Assembly (NCBI GenBank): GCA_035286465.1
Contig: DATEDF010000124.1
Span: 3,242-67,241 of the forward strand
Direction of reading: 5' to 3'
DNA length: 64,000 nucleotides
From: Gemmatimonadaceae bacterium
Lineage (GTDB): Bacteria; Gemmatimonadota; Gemmatimonadetes; Gemmatimonadales; Gemmatimonadaceae
Each line of letters opens with the position of its first letter. Position 1 is the first letter of the stretch. This document shows, one piece after another, positions 8,483-58,810 of the stretch. The notes under the pieces were generated by a model. The model saw only the letters and a list, made by a program, of their open reading frames with translations. It did no database searches and was not told where the DNA came from. Made by a program: the position numbers and the translations under genes.

Positions 8483-9358
8483 CTACAGCGCCTTCACCGC
8501 CGCTTCGATCTGCGTCGCGTTCCCGCTCACGACGTACGTGATCCGGCCATCCGCGCTGATGACGTACACGAGCGACGGATGGGACAGATCGCCGGTCTTC
8601 ACGTTCCGCACGCGGGGCACGCGCCACCGGTCGAGCGCGCGCTCCACCTCCTCCGGCGCGCCACTCAGCACGTGCGCGTCGCCCGTGATTCCCCACTGCA
8701 TCGCGATCGCCGGCAGCCGGCTCGGCGTGTCGCGCCACGGGTCGAGCGTCAGCACGAGCACCACCGGCGGCCGCGCGCCCAGCCGGTCGCGCGCGAGCAG
8801 GACGTCGGAGACGGTGAGCGGGCACACGGTCTCGCAGTGCGCGTAGGCGAACGTCACGAGCACCGGCCGGCCCCGGAACTGCTCGAGCCTCACCGTGCGA
8901 CCCGCCTGATCCGTGAGCGCCATCGCCGGCGGCGCGTCGTTCACGCGGGTGAGCTGCCGCGCGAGGTCGGCGGCCGGACTCGTGGCGAAGGGTTGCGCGC
9001 TGGCCTCGCGCACCCGGACCACCACGCCTCCGAGCCCGGCCACCAGGCCGGCGAGCGTCACGCCGACCACCACCTGCCCCGAGGCCCGCTGCAGCACTGC
9101 GCGCAACCCCTCACGGACCTCGCGACCCCACGCCGCATAGAGCACCAGCACCATCCCGAGCGGCTGCCCCACGAGCAGCAGCCAGCCGCCGGCGTTCGGC
9201 AGCCCGTCGAGCGCGGCGCCGAAACACACCAGGCGCGTGCGCGCCATCCAGCCGGGCGTCGCCGCGCTCATCGGCCACAAGGCGAGCGCCCACCACGAGG
9301 CGGTGATCACGAGGATCAGCGCCAGCGCGGCGAGCGCCGCCTTGCCCGGCCGGGACAT
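8483..9358 (-). CDS. SCO1/SenC copper chaperone with extra N-terminal multi-TM domain
   Basis: Track ORF 8483..9475. ATG 9358 (MSRPGKAALAAL..) lies 2 nt after the oxidase I stop. Thioredoxin-fold CxxxC motif FAYAHCETVCP, and a distal His in DLSHPSLVYVI. Confidence 0.8.
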   Translation of the reverse strand: MSRPGKAALAALALILVITASWWALALWPMSAATPGWMARTRLVCFGAALDGLPNAGGWLLLVGQPLGMVLVLYAAWGREVREGLRAVLQRASGQVVVGVTLAGLVAGLGGVVVRVREASAQPFATSPAADLARQLTRVNDAPPAMALTDQAGRTVRLEQFRGRPVLVTFAYAHCETVCPLTVSDVLLARDRLGARPPVVLVLTLDPWRDTPSRLPAIAMQWGITGDAHVLSGAPEEVERALDRWRVPRVRNVKTGDLSHPSLVYVISADGRITYVVSGNATQIEAAVKAL

Positions 9359-9360
9359 CG

Positions 9361-11112
9361 TCAGCCGATCTTCCATACCGCCGAGAGAATCTTCCAGTTC
9401 GTGAAGAAATAGAGCGCGAACGCCGCGAGGAAGACGAGCACGAACACCATCGTGCCCGGCGCCGGCCCCATCCACCCCTTCGCCGCACCGTGCAGCTCGG
9501 CGTTCCGCTTCTCCACGTCGGCCGCGTGCACGGGCGGATTCCAGATGCCCTGCGGCACGCCGACCATCGCGACGCCCTTGGTGATGACGCCGAGCGGCTC
9601 ACCGAAGAACACCGACTTGACCGCGATCGCGATGAAGATGAACGCGGCCGTGGCGGCCATCACGCCGCCGAGGGCGACAAAGGCCAGAATGAGATCCACC
9701 GCGGGATTGAAGGGCACGGTGAACGCGGCCTGGCTGAAGGTGATGTCCCAGTGCCGGCGCGGGACGCCGAAGCTCCCCGCGAACGTCATCGCCAGCGTGA
9801 AGATGGCCATCCCGCCGGCGAAGAGATACGGCTGGATCTTCGCGAGCGTCCAGAACGCCACCTTCTTCCGGAACACGAGCGGGATCAGGTAGTACGTCGC
9901 CCCCATGAAGGCCAGCGCCGTGCCGAGCGCGACCGTGGCGTGGAAGTGCCCGGGCGAGCGCAGCGTGTTGTGCACGATGATGTTGATCTGCTCCGTGCCG
10001 ATCGTCACGCCCGTGATGCCGCCGATGAAGCCGAACCCCACGACCGAGAACACGAGCGAGCTGAAGCCGGGATCGCCCCACGGCGCCCGCCGCAGCCAGT
10101 CGAACATCCCGCGCGTGAACCCGCGCAGCCGCATCCCCAGCTCCATCCCCGCGGGCACCGTGAACCCGTGAATCATCGAGGCGAGCACCGCCATGTACAT
10201 GAAGTAGCTCGTGTTCGCCACTTTCCACGCCGGCCCCATCCCCGGATCCACCAGCAGGTGGTGCGCCGACGCCATCGAGATGAACAGGATGTAGAGCACG
10301 AACGCCGAGCGGCTGATCTTCTCGTTGAGCACCACCGCGCCGATGGTGAGGGCCCCGAGCATGTACCAGAGCGCCACCATCGCGGCGACGTTGATCTGCT
10401 GCGACGAGTGGCCGAGCGCCCACCAGATGAGCCGGTAGACCTCGGGATCCACCTTCATCAGGCCCAGCGACCAGAGGAAGGTCGGGATGTAGATGATCGC
10501 GCCGTGGACGAGCGTGATCACGGCGATGATCGCCGCGGTCATCGCCCCGTACACGACCAGGGGCAGCGATCCCTCGTAGCGCTTCTCCCGTTTGGCGACC
10601 ACGAGGTTCGCGAAGAAGATCCCCGTGACGATCAGCGCGCCGACCGCGAAGAGGATGATGCCGAGGTAGAACGCCGGATGCGCGCGCAACGGCACGTAGG
10701 ACGTGAAGAGCACGTCGGCCTTGCCGGCCCACATCAGCACCTCGACCATCAGGGTGCCCACCAGCATGAGCGCGAAGGAGAACCAGGAGAGCCCGGGTGC
10801 GCAACAGCGGGCGTTGACCAGCGCGGTGCTCGCGAAGTGCAGCACCGCCATCTCGAAGAAGATGATCCAGAAGATGAGCATGCTCATCCCGTGCACGCCG
10901 AGGATCCGGTAGAACCAGTCCGCCGGCAGGAGGTGCACGGCCTGCCACCGCGTGAGTACGACCAGCACCGCGGCGGCCGCGCCGACGAGCAGCGCGACGA
11001 CCGCCACGACGGCGTTCACCCGGACCAGCAGCTCCGCCTTGTCGTGGATCCTGAGACCCGTGACGCCGCACGTGCGGAAGACGGCGGCTGGTCTTGCGGC
11101 CGGGGCGGTCAT
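9361..11112 (-). CDS. Heme-copper oxidoreductase catalytic subunit I, B-family (ba3)-like, with an atypical active-site motif
   Basis: Track ORF 583 aa, about 12 TM. His ligands: GVHGMS, WWALGH, SAHHLLVDPG, PGHFHATV. The helix-VI motif is GHSSQQ instead of GHPxVY. ATGA overlap with subunit II. Confidence 0.9.
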   Translation of the reverse strand: MTAPAARPAAVFRTCGVTGLRIHDKAELLVRVNAVVAVVALLVGAAAAVLVVLTRWQAVHLLPADWFYRILGVHGMSMLIFWIIFFEMAVLHFASTALVNARCCAPGLSWFSFALMLVGTLMVEVLMWAGKADVLFTSYVPLRAHPAFYLGIILFAVGALIVTGIFFANLVVAKREKRYEGSLPLVVYGAMTAAIIAVITLVHGAIIYIPTFLWSLGLMKVDPEVYRLIWWALGHSSQQINVAAMVALWYMLGALTIGAVVLNEKISRSAFVLYILFISMASAHHLLVDPGMGPAWKVANTSYFMYMAVLASMIHGFTVPAGMELGMRLRGFTRGMFDWLRRAPWGDPGFSSLVFSVVGFGFIGGITGVTIGTEQINIIVHNTLRSPGHFHATVALGTALAFMGATYYLIPLVFRKKVAFWTLAKIQPYLFAGGMAIFTLAMTFAGSFGVPRRHWDITFSQAAFTVPFNPAVDLILAFVALGGVMAATAAFIFIAIAVKSVFFGEPLGVITKGVAMVGVPQGIWNPPVHAADVEKRNAELHGAAKGWMGPAPGTMVFVLVFLAAFALYFFTNWKILSAVWKIG

Positions 11113-11702
11113 CGGACACCTCCCGAACCGCTCGGCGCGACCGGCGCCGCGGCCGGCGCCTCCTCGACGATCACGCGACCGACCATCGTGTGATGGCCGA
11201 TGCCGCAGAACTCGTTGCAGATGATGCGGAAGTCACCCGCCGAGGTCGGCGTGACGCGCAGGCCGTAGTCGTAACCCGGCACGATCTGGAAGTTCACGTT
11301 GATCGGATAGAGCCCGAACCCGTGGTTCATGTCGAGCGACGAGAGGTGGAGCGTGTACTCCTTCCCCTTCTGCAGCTTGAGGATCGGCGTCCACTGGAAG
11401 GTCATCGCCGCGAGGTAGACGTCCGCGCCGGGCGGCGGCGCCACGATCGGCATGCCGCGATCCTCGCCGACCTTGTACTGCGCGATGAACTCGTTGGTCC
11501 GCTTGAAATAGGCCTCGGGCGTGGTGCGACGCCGGATGCCCGAGGGGTTCTGGCCGCCCTTCCAGTGCCAGAGCGGCATCATGGCGAAGAGCACCATGCA
11601 CCAGGCGAAGGCGATGGCGACCCACGTCTTTTCCGCCTTGTGCGCGGGCTTCCACCAGACGCCCTTGGGCGAGTCGAGGCCCGTGTGTGTGTCAATGTGC
11701 AT
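11109..11702 (-). CDS. Heme-copper oxidase subunit II with CuA centre
   Basis: Track ORF 197 aa. One N-terminal TM helix, a cupredoxin domain, and CuA ligands in SLDMNHGF and ICNEFCGIGHHTM. Confidence 0.9.
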   Translation of the reverse strand: MHIDTHTGLDSPKGVWWKPAHKAEKTWVAIAFAWCMVLFAMMPLWHWKGGQNPSGIRRRTTPEAYFKRTNEFIAQYKVGEDRGMPIVAPPPGADVYLAAMTFQWTPILKLQKGKEYTLHLSSLDMNHGFGLYPINVNFQIVPGYDYGLRVTPTSAGDFRIICNEFCGIGHHTMVGRVIVEEAPAAAPVAPSGSGGVR

Positions 11703-11711
11703 GGGCGCGCC

Positions 11712-11882
11712 TCACGGGAGAGTCGCCGGGGGGAGAGTGAGGATTTCCCACATCCCCCAGCCGGTGAAGATGACGAACATGATGACCACGCCGAGCACGA
11801 GCAGCAGGAACATGTTGTCGAACAGGCGCTGGCCGAGCGGAATGGGCTCCTGCGGCGACTCCTTGGGTGTTGGATCGGGCAT
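11712..11882 (-). CDS. Small single-TM protein (56 aa), candidate oxidase subunit IIa-like accessory subunit
   Basis: Below the track size cutoff. My translation: MPDPTPKESPQEPIPLGQRLFDNMFLLLVLGVVIMFVIFTGWGMWEILTLPPATLP. ACGGAG lies 7 nt upstream of the ATG. The stop is 9 nt before the subunit II ATG. GC3 is high. Confidence 0.5.
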   Translation of the reverse strand: MPDPTPKESPQEPIPLGQRLFDNMFLLLVLGVVIMFVIFTGWGMWEILTLPPATLP

Positions 11883-11969
11883 GGGCGCTCCGTCTTCCGA
11901 AGGTCTATTTTCCTGCAGGGCTTTTCACGGGCGGGACAAGCGACGACATTATAGCACAAAAAGTGGTAT

Positions 11970-13637
11970 GTGCCATACTTGTTTTCCAGTAAAGTAACCG
12001 TCTCGCCGGGCACGCACGCCCGAACTCTCGCCCATCCCATCCGGCCGACTCGCCCGATCGCCGCTCCCGTGGCCGCCCCTTCCCGCCCCACCGAACGCGT
12101 CGCCGAACGCGCGCTCATCGCGCTCGACGCCGTGTGCAACCGTCTGTACGGCTGGCGGGGCAACCCGCTCTACCAGAGCGGCACGATCGTCTTCGCGCTC
12201 TTCCTGGTGCTGCTCGCCACGGGACTCTGGCTGATCTTCTTCTACCGGGTGGGAGCGCCGTACGCGTCGGTGGCGCGCCTGACGGCGAACCCGTGGATCG
12301 GCAACTGGGTGCGCGGCTTCCATCGCTACGCGAGCGACGCCGCCGTGGTCGCCGCGCTGGTGCACGCGGTCCGGATGTATGCGCAGGGCCGGAGCTGGGG
12401 CCCGCGCGCGCTCGCCTGGATGACGGGCGTGCTGATGCTCATCGTCGTATTCATCTGCGGGTGGACCGGCTACGTGATGGTGTGGGACACTTTCGGCGAG
12501 CTGCTCGCGCGCGAGGGGGCGCGGATGCTCGACACGCTGCCGGTGCTCTCCGAGCCTACCGCGCGGGTGTTCACCGGCGAGCGGCCGATTCCGAGCGTCT
12601 TCTTCTTCCTCAACCTGTTCGCGCACGTCGGGCTGCCGCTCGCGCTCTTCGGCGGGCTCTGGCTGCACGTCTCGCGCGTGGCGCGCTCGGCGCTCCTCCC
12701 GCCGCGGCCGCTGCTCTGGAGCGTGATCGGGCTGCTCTTCGCGCTCTCGGTCGTACGCCCGCTCGCGATGGCGCCCGAGGCGAATCCATTCCGGCTTGCG
12801 GACGCGGTGCCGGCCGACTGGTTCTACGCCTTCTGGCTGCCGCTCTCGCGCTCGCTCGCCGCCGGTCCCGCGCTCGCGGGCGCGGTGCTGACGGCGCTCG
12901 CGCTCCTGCTCCTGCCCGTCGCCACGCGGCGGCGCGGGGCGTCGGCGCCGCCGCCGTCGCAGGTGGACGAGAGCCTCTGCACCGGCTGCCGCCAGTGCTT
13001 CGCCGACTGTCCGTACGAAGCCATCACGATGCGCACGCGCGCGGACGGCCGGGCCGACGAGGTGGCGCACGTCACGGGCGACCGTTGCGTGAGCTGCGGG
13101 ATCTGCGCGGGCTCGTGCGCGCCGATGGGCGTCGGTCCGCCGGGCCGCACGGGCCGCGACCAGCTCGAGCGCGTGCGGGAGTATCTCGCGCGAGCGGAGC
13201 CCGGGGCCGGCACGATCGTCGCCGTCTGTTGCGCGCGCGGCGCGGCGCGCTTCGGCCATCTGCTGGCCGCCGACGGCGCTGCGCTCCATCCTGTGGACTG
13301 CGCGGGGAACCTGCACACATCGGCGATCGAGCTGCTCATTCGCGGCGGCGCCGGGGGCGTGCTGGTGCTGGCCTGTCCTCCGCGCGACTGTTGGAACCGG
13401 GAGGGGCCGCGCTGGCTGATGGAGCGCATCTATCACGACCGGGAGGCGGAGCTGCAGCCACGGGTGGACCGGCGTCGCGTGCGCGTCGCGTACGCGAACG
13501 CCGGCGAGCCGAGCGCGGCATTGGCGGCGCTGCGCGAGTTCGCGGCGCAGGTCGCGGCGCTGGGCGCGACCACCGCGGAAGGGGCCGTCGAGCTCGAGGC
13601 GGTCTGCGAGCCGGCACCGGTGGCGGAGCGCTCGTGA
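11970..13637 (+). CDS. Fusion protein: cytochrome b (N-terminal, 4-5 TM) + 2x[4Fe-4S] ferredoxin + MvhD/FlpD-like domain
   Basis: Track ORF 555 aa. Cytochrome b signatures FHRYASDAAVVAALVHAVRMY, W..GV..L....GY...WD and FFFLNLFAHVGLPLALFGGLWLH. Ferredoxin motifs CTGCRQCFADCP and CVSCGICAGSCAP. MvhD-like IVAVCCARG...VDCAGN...GGAGGVLVLACPPRDCWNREG. The start is uncertain (GTG 11970 in an AT-rich spacer, or in-frame GTG 12069). Confidence 0.8.
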   Translation: MPYLFSSKVTVSPGTHARTLAHPIRPTRPIAAPVAAPSRPTERVAERALIALDAVCNRLYGWRGNPLYQSGTIVFALFLVLLATGLWLIFFYRVGAPYASVARLTANPWIGNWVRGFHRYASDAAVVAALVHAVRMYAQGRSWGPRALAWMTGVLMLIVVFICGWTGYVMVWDTFGELLAREGARMLDTLPVLSEPTARVFTGERPIPSVFFFLNLFAHVGLPLALFGGLWLHVSRVARSALLPPRPLLWSVIGLLFALSVVRPLAMAPEANPFRLADAVPADWFYAFWLPLSRSLAAGPALAGAVLTALALLLLPVATRRRGASAPPPSQVDESLCTGCRQCFADCPYEAITMRTRADGRADEVAHVTGDRCVSCGICAGSCAPMGVGPPGRTGRDQLERVREYLARAEPGAGTIVAVCCARGAARFGHLLAADGAALHPVDCAGNLHTSAIELLIRGGAGGVLVLACPPRDCWNREGPRWLMERIYHDREAELQPRVDRRRVRVAYANAGEPSAALAALREFAAQVAALGATTAEGAVELEAVCEPAPVAERS

Positions 13638-14263
13638 ACACGCTCCCCCGCGCGGCCGGCGCCGCGCTCGCCATCGTCCTCACGCTCGCGCTCGGGTGGG
13701 CGTCCGACGCCCCGATGCCCGCGTTCCGACCCACGGACGCGGTGGTGCGCGTGAGCTGGGGCGCCCGCCCCGAGCGCATCGAGACGTGCCGCACGCAGAG
13801 CGACGAGGAGCTGGCGAAGCTGATGCCGCAGATGCGGCAGCGCGTCGTGTGCGAGGGGACCACCGCGCGCTACCGGCTCGAGGTGCGCCACGACGGCCGT
13901 CTGCTCGCGTCGCAGGAGGTGCGCGGCGGCGGGCTGCGCCACGATCGCGAGCTCTATGTCTTCCGCGAGTTGCGGGTGCCGCCGGGCCCGTCCTCGCTCG
14001 ACGTGCGCTTCGTGCGGCTCGACTCCGTCCCGGCGGAACGGGAGGACGCGCGCGAGCGCGGGCCAGGCGCGGACAGCGCGAGCGGCGGCATCTCCCCGGA
14101 GCGCGTGCGCCGCGAAACCGAAGAGCGCCGGCGGCGCCGCGAGGAGGCCGTGCCGGCATCGCTCGCGCTCCGCTCCGACGTCACGCTCCGGCCCCGTGAG
14201 GTGTTGCTGGTGACCTACGACGCCGAGGCGCGCCGGCTCGTCGCTGTGCGGCGCACGCCGTGA
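13634..14263 (+). CDS. Hypothetical signal-anchored protein (209 aa), no recognised domain
   Basis: C-terminal part of track ORF 12134..14263. GTG 13634 overlaps the upstream TGA (GTGA). N-terminus VNTLPRAAGAALAIVLTLALGW. High GC3. Its own stop overlaps the ctaA start (GTGA). Confidence 0.6.
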   Translation: MNTLPRAAGAALAIVLTLALGWASDAPMPAFRPTDAVVRVSWGARPERIETCRTQSDEELAKLMPQMRQRVVCEGTTARYRLEVRHDGRLLASQEVRGGGLRHDRELYVFRELRVPPGPSSLDVRFVRLDSVPAEREDARERGPGADSASGGISPERVRRETEERRRRREEAVPASLALRSDVTLRPREVLLVTYDAEARRLVAVRRTP

Positions 14264-15375
14264 AACGTACGCTCGGCCGCGTCCTCGCCGTCTGGGCCGC
14301 GATGGTCGCGCTCCTCGTTCTCATCGGCGGCGCCACGCGCCTCACCGAGAGCGGCCTCTCGATCACCGAGTGGAAGCCGGTGAGCGGCGTCGTCCCGCCG
14401 CTCGGCGACGCGGCGTGGGCCGAGGAGTTCGCGAAGTACCGGCAGATCCCCCAGTACCAGCAGCTCAACGCGGCGATGACGCTCGGCCAGTTCAAGGCGA
14501 TCTACCTCTGGGAGTACGCGCACCGGTTCTGGGCGCGAGTCGTCGGCGTCGCGCTCGTGCTCCCGCTGCTCTGGCTCGCCGCGCGGCGACGGCTCCCGCG
14601 CGACACGTGGCCGCGGCTCGTCGGCCTGCTCGTGCTTCTCGGCCTCCAAGGAGCCATGGGCTGGTGGATGGTCGTGAGCGGGCTCTCCGAACGCACGAGC
14701 GTGAGCCAGTACCGGCTCGCGGCGCATCTCGCGATGGCGCTCGTGATCTTCCTGTTCACGCTCTGGACGGCGGCGGGGCTTCTCGAGGAGCGGCCGGCGC
14801 CGCGCGAGCCGGGAGACGCGAGGGCTCGCGATGCCGCCGGTGCGGGGCACGGCACGCGGGGTTGGCGCGCTACGGGGGTTCGGCGCGCGCTCGTCGCGCT
14901 CCTGGCGCTCGTGTTCTTCACCGCCGTGACCGGCGCGTTCGTCGCGGGCCTCGACGCGGGAAAGATCTACAACACCTTCCCGCTGATGGGCGCCGGGCTC
15001 GTGCCCGCCGAGTACGGCCAGCTCCAGCCCGCGTGGAAGAACTTCTTCGAGAATCCGTCGGCGGTGCAGTTCAACCACCGGTGCGTCGCGATCGTGACAC
15101 TGGTCGTGGCCGTGCTGCTCTGGGCCAGGCTCCGGCGCGCGGGTGACGAACGTCTTGCGCGACGGATGGGGTACGTCCTCGCCGCGGCGCTGCTTCAGAT
15201 GGCGCTCGGCGTCGCGACGCTCCTCCTGAGCGTCCCCGTCTGGCTCGGCGTCGCGCACCAGGGCGGGATGCTCGTCCTGCTCACGGCTGCGCTGCTCGCG
15301 CTGCACGCGAGCCCGCGCGGGGAGGCGGTCAGACCCTCGCTGACGCCTGGAGATGCCGTCGCGCCGTCGGCGTGA
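14260..15375 (+). CDS. ctaA: Heme A synthase (COX15/CtaA family)
   Basis: Track ORF 371 aa. GGATRLTESGLSITEWKP, YLWEYAHRFWARV, FNHRCVAIV. Multi-TM. Confidence 0.85.
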   Translation: MKRTLGRVLAVWAAMVALLVLIGGATRLTESGLSITEWKPVSGVVPPLGDAAWAEEFAKYRQIPQYQQLNAAMTLGQFKAIYLWEYAHRFWARVVGVALVLPLLWLAARRRLPRDTWPRLVGLLVLLGLQGAMGWWMVVSGLSERTSVSQYRLAAHLAMALVIFLFTLWTAAGLLEERPAPREPGDARARDAAGAGHGTRGWRATGVRRALVALLALVFFTAVTGAFVAGLDAGKIYNTFPLMGAGLVPAEYGQLQPAWKNFFENPSAVQFNHRCVAIVTLVVAVLLWARLRRAGDERLARRMGYVLAAALLQMALGVATLLLSVPVWLGVAHQGGMLVLLTAALLALHASPRGEAVRPSLTPGDAVAPSA

Positions 15376-17255: not shown

Positions 17256-18350
17256 TCAGGGCCGCGCGAGCTTCGTCTTCGTCCACATCGCGATCGTCGT
17301 GCACGCGCGCCCGCTCACCTGGAACTCGGCGGGCACGTCGGCCGGACTCGAGTAGATCTCGACCGCCCCGACGTTCACGGCGTGGAACGCCTCGTCGAGG
17401 TCGCCCGGCTGCATCTGCTCGAAGCGCGCGTGGTCCACGAAGATGATGACGCAACCCGCCTCGGACAGGCCGGTGTTGCGCGTGGCCTGCACGACCCGTC
17501 CGGAGCCGCTCGACCGGACCGTCAGCCCCGGCACGGTCTGGAGCAGGTCGGTGAAGAGCAGCGGGTTGCGCTGTTCCACTTCCTCCGGGGAGATGAACCG
17601 GCCGCGGCCGAAGCGCTTCCGGTCCTCGAAGCCGATCTGCTTGAGGGCGTCATCGAGCTTCCCCACCACGCGCACCGCCTCGAGGAGGCGCGCGTCGGAC
17701 ATCGTCACCGTGACCTCGCGTGGCCGGAGCGTCGTGAGGTTCACCGCGACCGTCGCCGGCGCGTAGCCGATCTTCCTGGCCACGGTCGTGTGCGTGCCGG
17801 ACGGGAGCCCCGAGAGCGAGAACGCGCCGTCGGCTCCGGTGACCGCGTTCGCGCTCGTCCCCTCCACCGCCACCTGCGCGCCCGCGACCGGCGCGCCGCT
17901 CCGCGCCAGCACGCGTCCCTGCAGGACGGCGCGCGTGGCGCCCGAGACGTTGAGCGTGAGCACCGCCCCACCGAGCAGCCGGTCCGTGAACGCGATGGGC
18001 ACCTCGGGCGTGGTGAGCGCGCCGCGCGCGGCCTGCACCGTGCCGGCGTAGCGCTCGGGGAGCCCGCAGATCGCGAAGGTGCCGTCGTCCGCCGAGCGTG
18101 CGCGGCGGACGCGCTCGGCCGGCGGCTGCGCGAGCGAATCGGTGTAGACGAGCGAGACGTTCGCGCCGGCCAGCGGCGCGTCGGTATCGGCGTCGAGCAC
18201 GCGCCCGAAGAGGATCGCCGGCGCCCTGACGACGCCCCCCGGCGGGCAATAGCGCGCTTTCGCCTGGTCGTACGTCAGCACGCCGCCCTGCGCGTTCGCC
18301 ACACACGCGGCGAACGCGCACAAGACGGGGAGGAGCGACGCGCGGCTCAG
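17256..18350 (-). CDS. Secreted CarboxypepD_reg-like domain protein with TonB-plug-like C-terminal domain
   Basis: The track ORF starts at TTG 18323 (MCAFAAC..), which truncates a signal peptide. An in-frame CTG at 18350 overlaps the upstream TGA (CTGA) and gives LSRASLLPVLCAFAACVANAQ. Internal motifs: LQGRVLARSGAPVAGAQVAVEG.. (CarboxypepD_reg) and FTDLLQTVPGLTV (plug). Confidence 0.7.
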   Translation of the reverse strand: MSRASLLPVLCAFAACVANAQGGVLTYDQAKARYCPPGGVVRAPAILFGRVLDADTDAPLAGANVSLVYTDSLAQPPAERVRRARSADDGTFAICGLPERYAGTVQAARGALTTPEVPIAFTDRLLGGAVLTLNVSGATRAVLQGRVLARSGAPVAGAQVAVEGTSANAVTGADGAFSLSGLPSGTHTTVARKIGYAPATVAVNLTTLRPREVTVTMSDARLLEAVRVVGKLDDALKQIGFEDRKRFGRGRFISPEEVEQRNPLLFTDLLQTVPGLTVRSSGSGRVVQATRNTGLSEAGCVIIFVDHARFEQMQPGDLDEAFHAVNVGAVEIYSSPADVPAEFQVSGRACTTIAMWTKTKLARP

Positions 18351-21300
18351 CGCTGCCGGCGCCCCCGGCGCTCGTCCGGCGTTCCGAACGGCGAGCCGGC
18401 GCCGCCGCTGCCGCCCGCGCGCTCGACGCGGAGCAGCTGACGGTATGTCTGGCCGGCCACCGTCATCGTGACGACGTAGTCGCCGCTGTTCGCGGTGAAA
18501 CCGCCCGCGGCGCCACCGCCGCGCCCGCCGCCCCCGCCGCCCCCGCGACCGCCGCCGCCCAAGGGCGTCATCCCGACGATCTGGAAGATGCGGACGACAT
18601 TTGCCGCCGGCGCCCCACCGCGGCCGCCGAACCCGCCGCCGCCGCCGCCCGCGGCGCCTTCACCCGGCCGGGCGCAGAAGGGATCGCCCTGCACCAGCGG
18701 ACGCTCGCACCCGGCCACTCCCCGGCCGCCGCCGCCGCCGCCCGCGCCCCCGCCCCCGCCCCCGCCCCCGCCCCCGCGGCCGCCGGCGAGCGCCGCCGCG
18801 GCTGCGGCCGCCGCGGCCGGGTTCGTGACTGCCGCGATCAGCTGCTTCGCCTGCGCGATCGCGGCCGTGTCGTACCCCGCCTTCTGCAGCGAGTCGAGCA
18901 CCTGCGGCGCGCGCGCCACGCGCAGGATGCTGTCGCGCTTCTCCGAGGCCGACAGCTCGGCCACCGCCGCCACCGCCCGGCGCTGCCCCTGGAAGTTCCA
19001 GACCACGCCGTGCAGCCCGGGCCCGCCGGGACCGTTCAGCGTCGCGATCGTGTCGCCCGTGGCGTCGCTGATCTGGATCCGCACCGGCCCCGCGGGCGTG
19101 CCGGCGCCGAGCCGATAGTTGATCGCCGCACCGTAGGGCGGACTCCGCACCTCGAAGAACGCCTGCGCGTTCCCGTTGCCGCTCGCCGAGAGCGTCGGGG
19201 CCTCACCCCACTGGAACGCCGTCTTCGGCTTGAAGAGGTGCGCGCCCGCCGCCACCACCGTCGCCGTCATCTGTTCGAGCGGCGCGATGTCCACGATCCA
19301 GAAGCTGCGCCCGTGCGTCGCCGCGATCAGCTCGCGGTCGCGTGGATGGACCTGGAGGTCGTACACCGGCACCGAGGGCAGGCCGCTCGCGAACTTCGAC
19401 CAGCTCCGTCCGCGATCAATCGAGACGTACGTGCTGAGCGACGTGCCCACGAAGAGCAGGTCCCGGTTGTGCGGGTCTTCGCGCACGACGTGCACGAAGT
19501 CACCCGGCCCGTCCCTCGGCAGGTTGTTCACGATCGAGCGGAAGCTCTTCCCGCCGTCGTTGGTCGCATAGACGTAGGGCGTGAAATCGTTCCAGCGGTG
19601 ATTGTCGAACGTGACGTAGAACGCCAGCGTGTCGAAGTGCGAGGGCTCGATGCGCGAGACGTACACGTCGCTCGAGGGCAGCCCCGGGAACCGCGCCGAG
19701 AGATTCTCCCAGGAGCCGCCGTCATTGTGCGTCTTCCAGACGTTGCCGTCGTCCGTGCCCGCGAAGACGAGGCCCGGTTTCACGTACGATTCCGCGAGGG
19801 CCACCACGGTGCCGTACGTCTCGGCGCCGGTCGCGTCAATCGTGATGCCGCCCGTCCACCTGGTGGACGTGTCAATCTTGGCCTGCAGCTTCTTCGAGAG
19901 GTCGGGCGAGATCAGGAAGAACTCCTCTCCGCGCTTCAGAGACTTGAGCACCCGGTTGCCGCCGAAGTAGACGACCGCCGGATTGTGCGGTGAGAGGAAG
20001 AACGGCGAGTTCCAGTTGAAGCGGAGCGCGAGGTCAATTGAATCCTGCCGCTGCAAGGCGCGCAGCGCGCTGATCTTCGCGGTCATCTCCCGCGTCTCGG
20101 GCCTGAGCGGATCGCCGCGTATGATCGCGATCGAGTCCTCCCACACCCGGTATCGCGCCTGCCAGTTCGGCTTGACGAACGCCATCCGCTCGCCGGTCCG
20201 GAGGTTCACGCGCGAGGCGTTCCCGCCCTGCGACTCGCCGTAGACGATGTTCGGGTCGGTGGGGTCCTGTGCGGTGTAGAAGCCGTCGCCACCGGCGATG
20301 GTGAACCAGTACGCGTTGTTCACGGTGCCGCTTCTCCGCCGGCTCGGTCCGCACCACGAGCCGTTGTCCTGCGCGCCACCGCAGATGTTGTACGGCACGG
20401 CGAAGTCGTAGCTCACCTCGTAGAACTGCGCGAGCGGGAGGTGCATCGGCTGCAGGAAGTTGCCGCCCCGGTCGAACGTGAGCGCGTAGCCGCCGTCGTT
20501 CGCGAGCACCCAGCGCTCGGGATCGTTCGGGTCAATCCAGAGCCCGTGGTCGTCCACGTGCACGTTCTGCGCGGCGGAGCGCGCGTTCTTCCCACCCGAG
20601 TCCGACACGAGGAGCGGCGTGGAGGAGAAGTAGACGCGATCCGGGTTCCTCGGATCCACGCGCACCTGCGAGTAATAGAAGGGGCGCGTGTTCGCGTCAT
20701 TCGTCTTGGTCCAGGTCCGCCCTGCGTCGGTGGAGCGATAGAGGCCGTTGTCCGTCTGATTGCCCGGCGACGGCGTGTAGCTCCCGTCCTTCGACGGCTT
20801 TGCCGCCTCGACCATGGCATACACGTAGTCCGGGTTGCTGAGCGCGATCGCGAGGCTCATCCGGCCCTTCGTCCCTTCCGGGAAGCCACTTCCCTTGATC
20901 TCGGTCCAAGTGGCGCCGCCGTCCGTGGACTTCCAGAGCGCCGAGCCCGGTCCGCCGCTCTTGAGCGAATAGGGCGTGCGCAGGCGCTCCCAGGCCGCGG
21001 CATAGACCACCTCGGGATTCCGCGGGTCGAGCGCGACGTCCACGAAACCGGCCTTGTCGCTGATGAACTTCACGAGCTGCCAGCTCTGGCCGCCGTCGGT
21101 CGTCTTGTAGAGCCCGCGGTCGGGATTCGCCTTCCACGCGGCCCCGAGCGCCGCGACGTACACGATGTTCGGGTTTCGCGGGTGCACCGCGATGCGCCCG
21201 ATGTGCTGCGTCTTCTCGAGCCCCATCGGCTTCCACGTGATGCCGCCGTCGGTGGACTTGAAGATGCCGCCGCCCGGCTCGATGGAGTTGCGCGAGTTCG

Positions 21301-21640
21301 GCTCTCCGGTGCCCGCCCACACCTGCTGCGTGTCGGACGCCGCAATCGCGAGCATCCCCATCGAGATCACCCGTTTGTCGTCGAAGACGGGCCGCCAGGT
21401 GAGACCGTTGTTGGTGGTCTTCCAGATGCCGCCCGCCGCCGCCGCGATGAAGAGCGTCTTCGACGGCCCCGGGATGCCGACGACGTCGGAGAGCCGGCCC
21501 ATGAAGTTGGCGGGCCCGACGGTGCGCCAGCGGAGGCCGGCGATGGTGGCGGAGTCGAGGGTCTGCGCGGCGGCCGTAAGCGTGACGAGCGTGAGCGCGG
21601 CGGCGCCGGCGATGACGGAACGGAGGGACGAGCGAGCCAT
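18347..21640 (-). CDS. Sortilin/VPS10-type BNR (Asp-box) repeat protein, secreted, with long Gly/Arg-rich C-terminal tracts
   Basis: Track ORF 18347..21682. ATG 21640 (MARSSLRSVIAGAAALTLV.., AGGTGA SD) is preferred. Many S-x-D-x-G-x-T-W Asp-boxes (STDGGITW, TTDGGQSW, STDGGATW, STDAGRTW). Paralog of 45616..48933. Confidence 0.85.
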   Translation of the reverse strand: MARSSLRSVIAGAAALTLVTLTAAAQTLDSATIAGLRWRTVGPANFMGRLSDVVGIPGPSKTLFIAAAAGGIWKTTNNGLTWRPVFDDKRVISMGMLAIAASDTQQVWAGTGEPNSRNSIEPGGGIFKSTDGGITWKPMGLEKTQHIGRIAVHPRNPNIVYVAALGAAWKANPDRGLYKTTDGGQSWQLVKFISDKAGFVDVALDPRNPEVVYAAAWERLRTPYSLKSGGPGSALWKSTDGGATWTEIKGSGFPEGTKGRMSLAIALSNPDYVYAMVEAAKPSKDGSYTPSPGNQTDNGLYRSTDAGRTWTKTNDANTRPFYYSQVRVDPRNPDRVYFSSTPLLVSDSGGKNARSAAQNVHVDDHGLWIDPNDPERWVLANDGGYALTFDRGGNFLQPMHLPLAQFYEVSYDFAVPYNICGGAQDNGSWCGPSRRRSGTVNNAYWFTIAGGDGFYTAQDPTDPNIVYGESQGGNASRVNLRTGERMAFVKPNWQARYRVWEDSIAIIRGDPLRPETREMTAKISALRALQRQDSIDLALRFNWNSPFFLSPHNPAVVYFGGNRVLKSLKRGEEFFLISPDLSKKLQAKIDTSTRWTGGITIDATGAETYGTVVALAESYVKPGLVFAGTDDGNVWKTHNDGGSWENLSARFPGLPSSDVYVSRIEPSHFDTLAFYVTFDNHRWNDFTPYVYATNDGGKSFRSIVNNLPRDGPGDFVHVVREDPHNRDLLFVGTSLSTYVSIDRGRSWSKFASGLPSVPVYDLQVHPRDRELIAATHGRSFWIVDIAPLEQMTATVVAAGAHLFKPKTAFQWGEAPTLSASGNGNAQAFFEVRSPPYGAAINYRLGAGTPAGPVRIQISDATGDTIATLNGPGGPGLHGVVWNFQGQRRAVAAVAELSASEKRDSILRVARAPQVLDSLQKAGYDTAAIAQAKQLIAAVTNPAAAAAAAAALAGGRGGGGGGGGGGAGGGGGGRGVAGCERPLVQGDPFCARPGEGAAGGGGGGFGGRGGAPAANVVRIFQIVGMTPLGGGGRGGGGGGGRGGGAAGGFTANSGDYVVTMTVAGQTYRQLLRVERAGGSGGAGSPFGTPDERRGRRQR
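18746..18775. repeat. Hexanucleotide microsatellite (gccccc)x5 inside the Gly-rich coding tract
   Basis: Read directly. It encodes poly-Gly on the minus strand and is in frame (6 nt). Confidence 0.9.
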
Positions 21641-21768
21641 GGGATCACCTGCGAATGGGGGAGCGTTCGAGCCGAACGCCATCTATAAAATACGAGCGCG
21701 GCGCGGCGGCCGTTGGCGGCGCGTCCGGCCGGAGACCGGGGATCGCGCGAGGCGCTCGCCGAACCACT

Positions 21769-45615: not shown

Positions 45616-48600
45616 TTACGGCAGCACCGCCGGTTTCACCCCCACCAGCTGGTTGAACCGCGCGAGCTCCCGGTCCATCACCGCCTTGTAGCTCGCCTTC
45701 GCCGCCGCGAGGTCCTTCTCGATGTCCGCGAGCCACGCCAGCGACGCGTCGGTCGGCCGGAACTCCGCGCCGCCCGCGACGTCGCCCGCGCCCGTCCCCA
45801 CCTCACCCGACAGCCAGATCAGCGACAGGTAGATCCTGAACGGCTCCACGTACCACTTGTCGTCGCTGTGCAGATCGGAGCGCGAGAGCAGGAGCAGCTC
45901 CACGTCGAGGAGCTTCCGGTCCAGCTCGCCGAGCGCCGCCCTGTCCTCGGCGCGCGTGCTGTCGGACTTGCGCTTGTCCTCGATCTGTTTCCGCATCACC
46001 TCGAGCCGGTTCACCATGTCGGCGGTCGCGTTCATCGCGTCGCGAATCCGGATCTGTGCGGCGAGTGAGGCGCCCAGGTCGGCGTCCGTCGTCGTGATCT
46101 CGGGATCGCGCATGACCTCGAGCGGCTGCGCCACCGTCTGCCCGTCCACCGTGAGGCGCGCCGTGTACTTGCCCGGCAGCGCGAGCGGCCCGTTCGCCAT
46201 CGGTCCGCCGATGCCCCAGTGCACGATCGGCCGCGTCTTCTGGTCGCGGAATCGTGGCTCGTCCCAGATGAACGGATTGTCCGGCGCCACCGTGCGCAGT
46301 TCGACGCGCGTGGGCGGATCGTAACGCAGGTCCCACGTCGTGAGGTTCATGCCGCTCCGGCCGAGCTGCCTGATGGTGCGCAACGCGCTCCCCTTCGCGT
46401 CCACGATCTCGACCTTCACCGTGTCCTTCGGGACGGCCTTGAGCGAGAACTGGAGGCTCGCGGACCCGCTGCGCGCCTCGCGAACGCCCGCGCGCGGCGT
46501 GAAGAGGTGCAGGTCGGCGTTCGCGGCCGCCGCGTCCCGCTGCTCGAGCGTCGTGATGTCGCGCAGCACGTAGATCCCGCGCCCGTACGTTGAAACCAGC
46601 ACGTCGTGCCACGGCTTCGGCGTGGAGATCCACGTCACCGGCGCCGCGGGGAGCCCGTCCTGGAACTGCGTCCAGTGCGCGCCGTCGTCCATCGAGTAGT
46701 AGAACGCGTTCCCCGTTCCCGCGAACAGCATCCCCCTGCGATTCGGGTTCTCCGCCACCGCGAGCACGTACGCGAGGGGATGCTTCGCCGGCAGGTCGCC
46801 CGTGATCTTCTTCCACGTCTGCCCGAAGTCCGTCGTCTTGTAGAGGAAGGGCTCGCGATTGTCCATCATGTGGAAGTCCACCGCGACGTATGCCGTGCCC
46901 GCGTCGAAGCGCGAGGGTTCGATCTTGCGGATCGTGCCCCAGGCGGGAAGTCCCGTGATGTTCTTCGTGACGTCGTTCCACTTCTGGCCGCCGTCGCGGG
47001 TGTACCAGAGCTTCCCGTCGTTCGTGCCGGCCCAGATGAGCCCGCGCTGGATCTCCGACGGAGCGATCGCGAACACCACCTCGCCGTAGAACTGGCCGAG
47101 GTTGTCCTCGACGATGCCGCCCGACGAGACGATGCGGCTCGGATCGTTCGTCGAGAGATCGGGACTGATCACGGCCCAGCTCTGGCCGCCGTTCGACGTC
47201 CTGAAGATCACCTGGCAGCCGTAGTAGACGATGTTGCGGTCGAACGGGTCAATCGCCAGGGGCGGCGTCCAGTGGCAGCGGTACTTCGACTTGTTGGGCG
47301 GCGAATCGAGCGTGTGAATCCACGGGCTCACCGAGCGCGCGCGGCGCACGCGGTGGTCGTAGCGCGTGACCGTGTTCCCGTAGCACGACGCCCAGACGAT
47401 GTTCGGATCGGCGGGATCGGGGAGCGTGAACCCGGACTCGCAACCGCCGAGCCCGTGGTCCCAGGTGGAGAATCCACCGCCGCGGCCGCCGCCGCCAAAG
47501 CCGCCCCCTCCGCCGCCACGGCCGCCGCCGTCCCCGCCGCCACGACCGGTGTAGACCGCCAACGCGGCGCGCCCGCCCGACGTGGGCGGCGTCTCGGGCG
47601 CGGTGCTCGGCCCTCGGAACGTCCCGTCATCCTGCCGGTTGCCGTACACCCAGTACGGCACCTGGTTGTCCACCGTCATGTGGTACATCTGCGCGATCGG
47701 CAGCGAGATGCTCTGTGTCGTGCGGCCGCGGTCCGTCGTGATCCGCGCGCCCGCGTCGTTCGTCATCCCCAGATGGTCGGGGTTCTTCGGGTCCACCCAG
47801 ATGTCGTGGTTGTCGCCGCCCCACGGCACCGTCGCAAACGTGAGCCCGCCGTCCGTCGAGCGATGAAAGCTGCTGCTCGCGACGTACACCTCGTTCGCGT
47901 CGCCGCTCGACACCTTGATGTTGATGTAGTAACCCGCGCGTCCGATGAGCGGCCGCGACCAGCTCACCACCTTCCACGACGCGCCGCCGTCGTCGGAGCG
48001 CCAGACCGAGCCCTGCGCGTCGGTCTGAATGAGCGCGTAGACGCGCCGCGAATCGGTCGGCGCCACCGCGACGTCGATCTTGCCGAGCGGCGGCTTCGGG
48101 AGCCCCGGGTGCACGACGTGCGTCCAGGTCGCGCCGGCGTCGTGCGTCACGTAGATCCCGCTCGACGGCCCGCCCGAGTACATCGCGTACGTGTGCATCA
48201 CCACCTGCCACATCCCCGCGAAGAGCGTGTTCGGGTCCTTCCAGTCAATCCCGAGCCCCGAGCAGCCCGTGTTCTCGTCCACGAAGAGCGAGCGCTGCCA
48301 CGTGCGGCCGCCGTCGGTCGTGCGATACACGCCGCGCTCCTGTTGCGGACCGGTGGCGCGTCCGAGCGCGCACACGTAGACGACGTTCGGATTCGTGGGG
48401 TGCACGATGATCCGGCCGATGCGCCCGGTCTCCACGAGCCCGACGTTGGTCCACGTCGCGCCGGCGTCGGTGGACTTGTAGATCCCGTCCCCCATCACGT
48501 CGGCGTCGCGGATGGCCCACGCCTCACCCGTGCCGGCCCACACCTGGCTGGGGTCGGAGGGCGCGACGGCCAGCGCGCCGATCGCCTGCGCGCTCTGCTT

Positions 48601-48933
48601 GTCGAAGACGGGCACGAAGGTGTTGCCCTCGTCCACCGACTTCCAGACGCCGCCGCTGGCGGCGCCCAGGTACCAGGTGCGCACGTCGCCGGGGACGCCG
48701 GCGATGGCGGCCACCCGCCCTCCGCTCGAGGGGCCGAGCAGCTGGAACTGGAGCGGCGGCGGCGCCGGCGGCGGGCCGCCCCGGCCGCCGCGGCCGCCCG
48801 GCGGCTGCGCGGCGCCGAGCGCCGGGATCAGCACCGGGATGAGCGCGAGAATGACGGGCGCGGCGAGCGCGCGGAGCGCGCGCAGAACGCGCGGCACGCG
48901 AGCGTGAAGGCTGGGGATCATGGTCGGTTCCAT
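45616..48933 (-). CDS. Sortilin/VPS10-type BNR (Asp-box) repeat protein, secreted, paralog 2
   Basis: Track ORF 45616..49062. ATG 48933 or 48921 (MEPTMIPSLHARVPRVLRALRALAAPVILALIPVLIPALGAAQ). Asp-boxes STDAGATW, TTDGGRTW, SDDGGASW, STDGGLTF, TSNGGQSW. Gly/Arg-rich inserts. Confidence 0.85.
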   Translation of the reverse strand: MEPTMIPSLHARVPRVLRALRALAAPVILALIPVLIPALGAAQPPGGRGGRGGPPPAPPPLQFQLLGPSSGGRVAAIAGVPGDVRTWYLGAASGGVWKSVDEGNTFVPVFDKQSAQAIGALAVAPSDPSQVWAGTGEAWAIRDADVMGDGIYKSTDAGATWTNVGLVETGRIGRIIVHPTNPNVVYVCALGRATGPQQERGVYRTTDGGRTWQRSLFVDENTGCSGLGIDWKDPNTLFAGMWQVVMHTYAMYSGGPSSGIYVTHDAGATWTHVVHPGLPKPPLGKIDVAVAPTDSRRVYALIQTDAQGSVWRSDDGGASWKVVSWSRPLIGRAGYYINIKVSSGDANEVYVASSSFHRSTDGGLTFATVPWGGDNHDIWVDPKNPDHLGMTNDAGARITTDRGRTTQSISLPIAQMYHMTVDNQVPYWVYGNRQDDGTFRGPSTAPETPPTSGGRAALAVYTGRGGGDGGGRGGGGGGFGGGGRGGGFSTWDHGLGGCESGFTLPDPADPNIVWASCYGNTVTRYDHRVRRARSVSPWIHTLDSPPNKSKYRCHWTPPLAIDPFDRNIVYYGCQVIFRTSNGGQSWAVISPDLSTNDPSRIVSSGGIVEDNLGQFYGEVVFAIAPSEIQRGLIWAGTNDGKLWYTRDGGQKWNDVTKNITGLPAWGTIRKIEPSRFDAGTAYVAVDFHMMDNREPFLYKTTDFGQTWKKITGDLPAKHPLAYVLAVAENPNRRGMLFAGTGNAFYYSMDDGAHWTQFQDGLPAAPVTWISTPKPWHDVLVSTYGRGIYVLRDITTLEQRDAAAANADLHLFTPRAGVREARSGSASLQFSLKAVPKDTVKVEIVDAKGSALRTIRQLGRSGMNLTTWDLRYDPPTRVELRTVAPDNPFIWDEPRFRDQKTRPIVHWGIGGPMANGPLALPGKYTARLTVDGQTVAQPLEVMRDPEITTTDADLGASLAAQIRIRDAMNATADMVNRLEVMRKQIEDKRKSDSTRAEDRAALGELDRKLLDVELLLLSRSDLHSDDKWYVEPFRIYLSLIWLSGEVGTGAGDVAGGAEFRPTDASLAWLADIEKDLAAAKASYKAVMDRELARFNQLVGVKPAVLP

Positions 48934-49069
48934 CGGATGGGAAACGGACTCGAGAAACTCGCCACTCGAGGCCGTCATGCCACGCTCTCGGAGCGGAAAG
49001 TCACGCCATACGCTGCCGCGTGCGCACGCGCGGAGCAAGAGGCAGGCCTGCTGCGGCCACACGACGCGA

Positions 49070-52479: not shown

Positions 52480-52486
52480 CGCCGGC

Positions 52487-54136: not shown

Positions 54137-54153
54137 CGTCGGGATTGCGGCCG

Positions 54154-55689: not shown

Positions 55690-55790
55690 TGTCTCGGCGC
55701 TCCGAGTCGTCGAGGGAGAATGGCCAAGGTGCCCCCGCCGAGGGACACTGTCTGTCAGACACCCCCCGAGGGGGCGTAGGGGAAGTTGCT

Positions 55791-55830
55791 CCCGGGGGCG
55801 CCCGGGGGCGCCCGGGGGCGCCCGGAGGGC
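55791..55830. repeat. 10-nt tandem repeat cccgggggcg x3.5 in the glgP-glgA intergenic spacer
   Basis: Read directly at 55791-55800, 55801-55810, 55811-55820 and 55821-55830 (the last copy is degenerate). Confidence 0.9.
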
Positions 55831-55861
55831 CGTCTCGCCCTCGGTTGGCCGCGCGAAACGC

Positions 55862-58048: not shown

Positions 58049-58237
58049 CGATGTAGACGAAGAAGGTAGCGTGCGAGGCGCGACGCGGGAAAGATCGTCG
58101 GCTGCGGGCGCGTGCTCGTCGGACGTTCCCCTACGCGCGCCGGGGAAGCGTCCGCCTTGACGGACGGGCGGCGAGCGCCCATGCTGGCAGATGGGGGAAG
58201 GGGTTTCGCGCGAAGCTCCCCGGCGGAGGGACGCTCC

Positions 58238-58684: not shown

Positions 58685-58810
58685 ACCCGGCGCGGCGGCG
58701 CAGCGGCGCGGCAGCTCGCCGCCCGCCGTTGGCGGCCGGGAGCGCGCGGCGTATTATCGGTGCACGGACGGACGCCGTCGCGAGGCCCCACTGACACGAG
58801 GAGACTGACG

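Follow-up and report, generated by a model that had tools for sequence, protein, structure and literature searches.

We show that a 64,000-nucleotide stretch of DNA from a Gemmatimonadaceae bacterium (contig DATEDF010000124.1; this whole stretch is hereafter called the window) encodes a fusion protein that joins a membrane cytochrome b, two [4Fe-4S] cluster motifs, and a domain of the MvhD/FlpD type, next to the genes of a heme-copper enzyme with the signature of the eNOR family of nitric oxide (NO) reductases. The fusion is probably a dedicated membrane electron-transfer module, made of known parts in an uncharacterised combination. Cytochrome b/Fe-S genes of this kind are the rule, not the exception, for eNOR-type heme-copper clusters. 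Our preferred reading, which is tentative and to which we give slightly less than an even chance, is that the fusion and a 209-amino-acid protein encoded directly downstream are the dedicated membrane redox partner of eNOR, a Rieske-less quinol-oxidising input module. The direction of electron flow in this reading is one that we infer.

The three modules follow one another in the order given by the initial annotation of the window, which had been made from the sequence alone. Each lies above its curated Pfam threshold. In the numbering of the 555-residue open reading frame (ORF) from which that annotation started, Cytochrome_B (PF00033) matches residues 67–234 with 47.9 bits against a cutoff of 27.2. 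A second cytochrome b profile, Cytochrom_B_N_2 (PF13631), scores 41.8 bits against 27, and the two span residues 67–241. Residues 331–384 match the 4Fe-4S families Fer4_7, Fer4, and Fer4_6, and residues 438–532 match positions 29–123 of the 123 positions of FlpD (PF02662; 42.6 bits against 22.3). The matches of the fusion in NCBIfam are all sub-threshold and comprise cytochrome ExtP, cytochrome b6, and the C-terminal ferredoxin-MvhD part of HdrA2. The ferredoxin-plus-MvhD pair aligns to HdrA2 residues 571–775 (E value of the C-terminal HdrA2 match, 1.1e-15). The nearest solved relatives of the ferredoxin domain are the C-terminal ferredoxin domain of HdrA and NuoI/TYKY.

The residues expected to hold the cofactors are strongly conserved in an alignment of 100 sequences of the fusion family (522-residue numbering). 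Both histidine pairs noted at the outset are retained without exception: the four heme ligands H85, H99, H186, and H200 are invariant. The same is true of seven of the eight cysteines in the two CxxCxxCxxxCP motifs, with C307 at least 90% conserved. The cysteines of the MvhD domain are kept in 100% (C388), 100% (C411), 99% (C436), and 89% (C441) of the sequences, and this four-cysteine site probably binds a [2Fe-2S] cluster.

The length first reported for the protein needs revision. In the window, whose G+C content is ~72%, the reading frame is indeed open from a GTG at 11970, which gives 555 amino acids (11970–13637, + strand). The true start is probably the GTG at 12069, giving 522 amino acids, because nearly all close homologues have ~522 residues, the public gene call on contigs identical to the window starts 33 codons downstream, and the 33 additional N-terminal residues are not conserved among homologues.

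The membrane domain belongs with the cytochromes b of bc1 and b6f complexes. Cytochrome b6 chains in the PDB match it at an E value of 2e-17. The AlphaFold2 model of the 522-residue protein is confident and rigid (predicted local distance difference test score [pLDDT] 94.1; predicted template modelling score [pTM] 0.90), with the Fe-S part packed rigidly against the membrane domain. The best PDB matches of this model in Foldseek are full-length bc1 cytochromes b, and because these matches span 280–350 alignment columns, the modelled fusion retains helices E and F and their connecting Qo-type loop, beyond the four-helix N-terminal domain. In complex III, the E–F loop forms part of the Qo quinol-oxidation site. 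Across the fusion family the loop after helix E reads D-[W/L/I]-F-[Y/F]-x-F-W-L-P, in which D250 is Asp in 92% and Asn in 7% of the 100 aligned sequences. Its position, its acidic residue, and the Foldseek coverage suggest that this loop is a PEWY-like motif. Homology to cytochrome b6 and bc1 cytochrome b, together with hydropathy, would place the loop on the periplasmic side and the Fe-S and MvhD domains on the cytoplasmic side. The predicted topology is thus a cytoplasmic N-terminus, six cytochrome b helices, and then the Fe-S and MvhD domains in the cytoplasm. The position of the heme cn cysteine of b6f is occupied by Gln. The cytochrome stops after helix F, and in place of the Qi side the chain continues with the cytoplasmic Fe-S domains.

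The genes for the fusion and for the 209-amino-acid protein are one functional unit, which is a single polypeptide in most other lineages. Many family representatives are 650–750 amino acids long, and in these the MvhD domain is followed by a hydrophobic helix and a domain homologous to the 209-amino-acid protein. A profile of this domain finds it fused to the C-terminus of the fusion in 105 of 150 representatives. Because it is fused to the module in most relatives, we regard the 209-amino-acid protein as the true partner of the fusion. The initial annotation described it as a signal-anchored protein without assigned function, linked by GTGA overlaps to the fusion gene and to ctaA. Both stop/start overlaps are present (13634–13637 and 14260–14263), the protein has an N-terminal hydrophobic helix, and neither Pfam nor NCBIfam returns a match for it.

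The AlphaFold2 model of the 209-amino-acid protein (pLDDT 88.4) has one helix and ~10 strands. A profile search with the protein finds only homologues named “hypothetical protein”, and Foldseek comparison of the model with the PDB gives nothing below an E value of 0.05, with generic beta-sandwiches only. The Rieske fold is not among the 50 best matches listed, where the copper-binding proteins CopC and FtrA-P19 appear only at E values of 0.3–0.45. Residues R39, C52, E59, P64, H66, M67, C73, Y80, G88, G100, and D104 are conserved in the family. Of these, C52 and C73 are nearly invariant and lie in separate strands of the model (residues 48–54 and 71–77). A charged insert of ~40 residues (window 14024–14146, residues ~131–171; AEREDARERG...RRRRREEA) is missing from most homologues, has low model confidence, and is clade-specific.

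Long forms of the family also point to where the partner domain lies. At the very end of five of the 150 representatives lies a class I cytochrome c (CxxCH; Pfam Cytochrom_C). Since maturation of c-type cytochromes is confined to the periplasm, the tail of the long forms should be periplasmic, and the beta-sandwich of the 209-amino-acid domain would likewise sit in the periplasm, after one further membrane helix. The cytochrome c-tailed variants are found at locus L090 (4152–6461, P0256; L numbers denote individual loci) and in P0235, P0253, P0269, and P0270. L090, the sole tailed locus examined, adjoins a B-family oxidase that contains the active-site Tyr (WFTGHPLVYFW), with a CuA subunit and two SCO1 genes. 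Because this partner enzyme keeps the Tyr, the module family appears, on the evidence of this one locus, to serve ordinary B-family oxygen reductases as well. Its position beside a CuA oxidase fits a role of the module as donor to CuA.

The neighbouring heme-copper enzyme of the window is probably of the eNOR type. Subunit I aligns with the ba3 oxidase of Thermus thermophilus (E value ~1e-44) and retains all six metal-ligand histidines, including those of the HH and GHFH motifs. In place of the cross-linked Tyr it has Gln, with GHPIVY of the ba3 oxidase aligning to GHSSQQ. The residue at this position differs among families, being Gln in eNOR, Asn in sNOR, and Asp in gNOR (PMC8756737 Table A4). 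Subunit II has an intact CuA ligand pattern, H...CNEFCGIGHHTM. According to PMC11214002, eNOR uses heme As and many eNOR operons include ctaA; since eNOR uses these hemes, the presence of ctaA in the window is accounted for. It is the diagnostic residue, the CuA subunit, and the link to ctaA that point to eNOR. An assignment to sNOR was also considered and is ruled out, the residue being Gln rather than Asn. The “atypical oxidase” of the initial annotation is therefore a Tyr-less heme-copper enzyme, as stated there, but one that carries the signature of an NO reductase and is not just an oxidase.

The fusion family is large and widespread. A word-indexed search with the fusion returns more than 2500 matches at E values below 1e-5, and the best 120 all have the three modules. 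Among representatives clustered at 50% identity, a HMMER scan finds 412 clusters at E values below 1e-30. Relatives are encoded in at least 444 species-level genomes, and the source records name at least five phyla. Labelled hosts are Gemmatimonadota, Acidobacteriota (Vicinamibacterales), Armatimonadota, Methylomirabilota, Bdellovibrionales, and a metagenome-assembled genome (MAG) labelled Geminicoccaceae. Representatives of odd length, inspected for other architectures, are fragments only and contain no flavin adenine dinucleotide (FAD) or NAD domains. The records use generic names (“hydrogenase iron-sulfur subunit”, “4Fe-4S binding protein”, “cytochrome b N-terminal domain-containing protein”, and “ferredoxin”), and none of them assigns a function.

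The family is closely linked to eNOR-type enzymes. We searched the 80 best species-level genome loci and six metagenome loci, 86 in total, with the proteins of the window. The fusion is present in all 86, the 209-amino-acid protein in 85, a 56-amino-acid protein in 81, subunit II in 80, subunit I in 76, SCO1 in 70, and ctaA in 15; the shortfalls in the core genes arise because contigs end there. The six-gene core (the fusion, the 209- and 56-amino-acid proteins, the CuA subunit II, subunit I, and SCO1) occurs in all 80 genome loci wherever the contig reaches. Of 75 adjacent subunit I proteins, 69 have the motif HSSQQ or HASQQ. At L088, L089, L092 (a Methylomirabilota MAG), and L093 (a Bdellovibrionales MAG), more distant relatives of the long form make up a co-linear series with the enzyme genes (small protein-II-I-SCO1-fusion). 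L087, on a short contig, has the end of subunit I followed by SCO1 and the fusion, in the order of the co-linear loci. The eNOR signature is found in all four distant long-form loci with a readable motif.

A sample that is independent of the fusion leads to the same association. With a degenerate DNA pattern, we searched metagenome contigs for stretches that encode G-H-S-S-Q-Q-I-N-V. Where the contig extends 2 kb or more to either side of subunit I, 13 of 15 such loci have the fusion, and where it extends 2 kb or more downstream, 28 of 31 do; the fusion gene mostly points the same way as the enzyme genes (small protein-II-I-SCO1-fusion). The proposed linkage to a Tyr-less heme-copper enzyme is thus borne out. 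Clustering of ORFs from 91 loci finds that, beyond the core and antisense shadow ORFs, only a gene of the SDR family (16 loci) and ctaA (11 loci) recur.

Some of these clusters have other NO-related neighbours. In two distant lineages, L089 (4644–6435) and L093 (464–2292), the genes immediately upstream of the eNOR-fusion cluster encode NnrS and hemerythrin, and a gene for the copper nitrite reductase NirK lies directly downstream in L093 (10699–11269). L089 also has a Nar/Nxr-like molybdoenzyme and cofactor biosynthesis genes. Several co-linear clusters have an extra gene of ~300 amino acids between subunit I and SCO1 (L124, 9359–10243; L125, 3581–4489; L127, 1306–2208), possibly the heme O synthase that has been noted in the Ferrigenium eNOR operon.

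Comparison with known systems places the fusion between several families. It is homologous in sequence to the cytochrome b of bc1 and b6f complexes and, like it, has helices A–F and canonically spaced bis-His ligands; an acidic residue before W-F-Y in the predicted P-side loop may correspond to that of PEWY. Those complexes have a Rieske protein and cytochrome c1 or f, whereas the fusion clusters have none, and the fusion therefore fails the definition of a bc complex. No Rieske or cytochrome c1/f gene was found in the window cluster or in the gene tables of related loci, a search at the level of loci. With MvhD/FlpD and the C-terminal part of HdrA2, the fusion shares the FlpD profile, the four cysteines, and the ferredoxin-MvhD pair. 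The partners of MvhD are HdrA and the Mvh hydrogenase, whereas the MvhD domain of the fusion is tethered to a membrane cytochrome and its hosts carry heme-copper enzymes. No HdrA flavoprotein, HdrBC, or hydrogenase gene lies within 10 kb in ~90 loci.

Other membrane modules resemble the fusion in design. NosGH/NapGH and NosR are similar in concept, as membrane modules dedicated to one periplasmic reductase with cytoplasm-facing [4Fe-4S] clusters. NosZ, like eNOR, has a CuA site. However, these modules are hemeless and show no homology in their membrane part, and neither FMN-binding nor NapH-type domains are matched in the fusion by Pfam or NCBIfam. QmoC, HdrDE, DsrMK, and NarGHI likewise link the quinone pool through a dihaem membrane cytochrome b to cytoplasmic Fe-S clusters, but they have a fold of the NarI/HdrE type rather than the bc type, a catalytic cytoplasmic subunit, and no periplasmic domain. 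Further counterparts, compared by description, are proteins of the Ferrigenium straubiae eNOR operon, which combine cytochrome b with an Fe-S domain in an operon with sco1 (10.64898/2026.01.22.701106). Unlike the window protein, one Ferrigenium paralogue has FAD and NADH domains, and the preprint describes neither MvhD, nor a fused periplasmic domain, nor a wide distribution. In gene order, the co-linear clusters also resemble norSY-senC-orf1 of the sNOR of ammonia oxidisers, with a CuA subunit, a heme-copper subunit I, SenC/SCO1, and one more gene (PMC4940428, PMC4964001). The last of these, orf1, is a candidate counterpart of the fusion. The two enzymes differ at the Tyr position, which is Asn in sNOR and Gln in the window (PMC8756737 Table A4). 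NE0681, which lies next to senC, shows a 2.2-fold rise under oxygen limitation.

In the mechanism that we propose, quinol would be oxidised in a Qo-like pocket on the periplasmic side. One electron would pass to CuA of eNOR subunit II, with the beta-sandwich domain docking onto that subunit and, in the tailed variants, the cytochrome c tail carrying the electron. The second electron would travel through heme bL and heme bH into an Fe-S wire across the membrane. This wire would end at the exposed MvhD cluster, which would trade electrons with a soluble protein of the cytoplasm encoded outside the cluster of genes. The net result would be a Rieske-less “complex III” inside an NO reductase operon, making eNOR independent of soluble cytochrome c. 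We favour quinol oxidation because a heme scaffold alone needs only four helices, with no helices E and F or conserved acidic loop, and because CuA needs a periplasmic donor and none is otherwise encoded in the cluster. The latter point follows from the absence of cytochrome c and Rieske genes in the inspected gene tables and recurrent families.

Several points weigh against this proposal. In all known Qo sites, the first acceptor is a Rieske cluster, and there is none here. Without a Rieske protein or a cofactor in the 209-amino-acid domain, the electron path from the quinol site to CuA is left unexplained. No known cofactor motif fits that domain, which has no known fold, and its most conserved histidine (H66) is Gln in the window protein. 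The presumed match to PEWY is drawn from location and a single acidic residue, and no gene for a cytoplasmic partner of the Fe-S wire recurs in the 91 loci. Two loci with the eNOR motif and ample flanks, L110 and L124, are without the fusion and may use a different donor, and one relative, L091, is without a heme-copper gene in the short sequence available. The role suggested for the family comes from sequence, model, and gene context. At L124, a 470-amino-acid ORF with weak similarity to subunit I follows SCO1, and at L110 ctaA is divergent.

The same architecture could be read as a transmembrane conduit that involves no quinone, in which electrons would run from ferredoxin or an NAD(P)H/flavoprotein through MvhD, the two [4Fe-4S] clusters, and hemes bH and bL to CuA. 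Such a conduit would resemble NADPH oxidase, ferric reductase, or MsrQ-type export, and would give NO detoxification powered from the cytoplasm. All cofactor sites do lie on one linear path from cytoplasm to periplasm, which the cytochrome c-tailed variants prolong, and MvhD is known as an electron-entry adaptor in Mvh-Hdr complexes. In Ferrigenium, the eNOR-operon paralogue that has gained FAD and NADH-binding domains can equally be read as a route from NADH through the hemes to eNOR. We nevertheless consider this reading unlikely. Helices E and F are kept, as is the Qo-type loop with its almost invariant Asp, and a quinone-free conduit has no need of them; all characterised cytochromes b of the bc type react with quinones; and no flavoprotein or ferredoxin gene is conserved nearby in the 91 loci. 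If quinol is the donor, the module could alternatively perform quinone-based electron bifurcation, sending one electron downhill via CuA to NO, whose reduction has a very high potential, and the other uphill through the b hemes and the Fe-S/MvhD domains to ferredoxin or NAD(P)+. A similar idea has reportedly been proposed for the bc1-type complexes of anammox bacteria. NO reduction would then directly drive reverse electron flow in one compact supercomplex. The structural evidence is that for the quinol donor, and the low-potential branch ends in MvhD, a module otherwise of flavin-based bifurcating Hdr-type complexes, as the HdrA2 match reflects. For the Ferrigenium paralogue bearing FAD and NADH domains, coupling of NO reduction to NAD+ reduction has been proposed (10.64898/2026.01.22.701106). 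Bifurcation in the window protein is quite unlikely, however: neither it nor the 150 representatives have an NAD(P)- or flavin-binding domain, and the hosts look like heterotrophic Gemmatimonadota and Acidobacteriota (an assumed lifestyle) with no obvious need for reverse electron flow.

Two further readings would take the module out of the catalytic electron path. As a maturation or repair factor, it might supply reducing power for the CuA-site cysteines, for SCO1 or copper, for reactivation of eNOR, or for heme A synthesis by CtaA. It co-occurs constantly with SCO1, the partner gene overlaps ctaA by GTGA in the window, and C52 and C73 of the periplasmic domain could be a redox pair, although they may simply form a structural disulfide, lying as they do in separate strands. 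There is precedent in NosR and NapH, which sit in the membrane, carry Fe-S clusters on the cytoplasmic side, and serve copper enzymes of the periplasm. For NosR, reactivation of N2O reductase has been proposed. Yet only 15 of the 86 loci have ctaA close to the cluster, seven helices and five cofactors are elaborate for a chaperone-type role, and the cytochrome c-tailed variants resemble respiratory donors, which makes a maturation role very unlikely. That the module is an independent quinol:X or X:quinone oxidoreductase with a cytoplasmic substrate, of the NarI, DsrMK, or dihaem succinate dehydrogenase type, and merely co-regulated with eNOR, is hardly credible. Fe-S clusters, two hemes, and a quinone site on the periplasmic side are the design of dihaem succinate:menaquinone reductases and of NarGHI, and L091 would suit such an enzyme. 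This reading leaves unexplained the periplasmic domain and its cytochrome c extension, as well as why module and enzyme are neighbours almost without exception, mostly within a single operon, in at least five phyla named in source records, and no catalytic cytoplasmic subunit is conserved nearby in the 91 loci. More generally, HdrA, hydrogenase, flavoprotein, ferredoxin, Rieske, and cytochrome c are all absent from the recurrent families of these loci.

Table 1. Features of the fusion locus, with positions counted from the first nucleotide of the window
Feature	Position	Strand	Basis
Fusion protein, 522 amino acids (probable start): cytochrome b (helices A-F, two b hemes), two [4Fe-4S] motifs, and MvhD/FlpD-type domain (putative [2Fe-2S])	12069..13637	+	Pfam, homologue lengths, public gene call, AlphaFold2, Foldseek
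Membrane domain of the fusion, residues ~1-290: six helices; H85/H99 and H186/H200; P-A-D250-W-F-Y-x-F-W-L-P loop	12069..12938	+	Cytochrome b6 match, Foldseek, conservation, hydropathy
2x[4Fe-4S] ferredoxin domain, predicted cytoplasmic: C304/307/310/314 and C340/343/346/350	12954..13133	+	Fer4 families, Cys conservation
MvhD/FlpD-like domain: C388, C411, C436, C441	13206..13568	+	Pfam FlpD, NCBIfam, conservation
209-amino-acid partner: N-terminal membrane helix, then orphan beta-sandwich	13634..14263	+	AlphaFold2, fused homologues, presence in 85/86 loci
Heme A synthase CtaA, accessory variable neighbour	14260..15375	+	Pfam COX15-CtaA E 1.8e-105; 15/86 loci
Divergent intergenic region, 186 nucleotides: AT-rich stretch inside; inverted repeat GTATG-TGC-CATAC at 11966-11978	11883..12068	.	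Sequence
56-amino-acid single-helix protein, first gene of eNOR operon	11712..11882	-	ORF, public gene call, one hydrophobic helix, 81/86 loci
Subunit II, complete CuA site (H...C-x-E-x-C-x3-H-x2-M)	11109..11702	-	TIGR CoxB E 3e-11; sequence FRIICNEFCGIGHHTM; 80/86 loci
Heme-copper subunit I, probable eNOR type, B-family-like	9361..11112	-	Pfam COX1 E 5e-57; ba3 alignment; GHSSQQ
SCO1/SenC copper chaperone, 297 amino acids, last gene of eNOR operon	8483..9376	-	Pfam SCO1-SenC E 5.5e-23; public gene call; 70/86 loci

The genes around the fusion differ in how firmly they belong to the unit. The gene after that of the 209-amino-acid partner was correctly annotated as a ctaA gene (COX15-CtaA) that overlaps its neighbour by GTGA, but its low frequency near the cluster sets it outside the conserved unit. 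The 56-amino-acid gene, between the CuA gene and the fusion, was overlooked in the initial annotation. Its product has no Pfam match, and from its position and size we presume that it may correspond to subunit IIa of ba3 oxidases. In SCO1/SenC, the N-terminal ~120 residues have three predicted hydrophobic segments, by hydropathy only, instead of the usual single anchor. Among 20 ORFs scanned from the rest of the window, there are no further respiratory or denitrification genes.

A shared divergent promoter of 90 AT-rich nucleotides had been suggested between the two operons. An AT-rich stretch does lie there, but the divergent region, bounded by the missed 56-amino-acid gene, is longer than proposed. 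An FNR/DNR-type TTGA-N6-TCAA box is absent from this region and from 81 related regions. Of 79 related loci, 8 carry an 18-bp palindrome, TATGA-N6-TCATA, in their divergent promoter, whereas shuffled sequences predict 0 (L004, L009, L011, L012, L014, L018, L019, and L021; these are Acidobacteriota MAGs where the host is named, L004 being unlabelled). The palindrome is likely an operator for a regulator. The inverted repeat of the window is shorter than this palindrome, has another spacing, and overlaps the GTG at which the 555-residue ORF starts.

Elsewhere, the window encodes two very large Sortilin/BNR-repeat proteins (18347–21682 and 45616–49143, − strand), one with long Gly-rich tracts, and a glycogen metabolism cluster (51037–58753) with a GH57 branching enzyme, a starch synthase-type glycosyltransferase, and a phosphorylase. 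Both are unrelated to the fusion.

Proteins like the fusion have been noticed before, so that the description “undescribed” in the initial annotation holds for function and not for existence: no source assigns a function, and we found mentions only in the Ferrigenium preprint and in one row of PMC8756737 Table A3. The preprint (10.64898/2026.01.22.701106, May 2026) calls the cytochrome b/Fe-S proteins in the eNOR operon “rather unusual”, treats them as Ferrigenium markers, and proposes a supercomplex with eNOR. It also places proteins of the eNOR operon, including two cytochrome b/Fe-S proteins, in an earlier proteome of a denitrifying Fe(II)-oxidising culture. The row in Table A3 lists one protein with cytochrome b6, DMSOR_beta-like, FlpD, and cytochrome c domains.

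eNOR was proven to be an NO reductase only in 2024 and is among the commonest N2O-forming enzymes in environmental data, according to the available text of PMC11214002, where activity was measured with an artificial donor and the physiological donor is not addressed. The fusion family is an obvious candidate for this physiological donor; it lies next to most sampled eNOR genes and, in most lineages, in the same operon. The fusion gene is also a practical genomic marker for this type of eNOR cluster. If this is true, a bc-type cytochrome b that needs no Rieske protein and passes its low-potential electron to cytoplasmic Fe-S clusters in place of a Qi site would be a new test case for Qo chemistry. 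If quinol is indeed oxidised, denitrification through eNOR would bypass complex III and soluble cytochrome c, changing how its energy yield is modelled.

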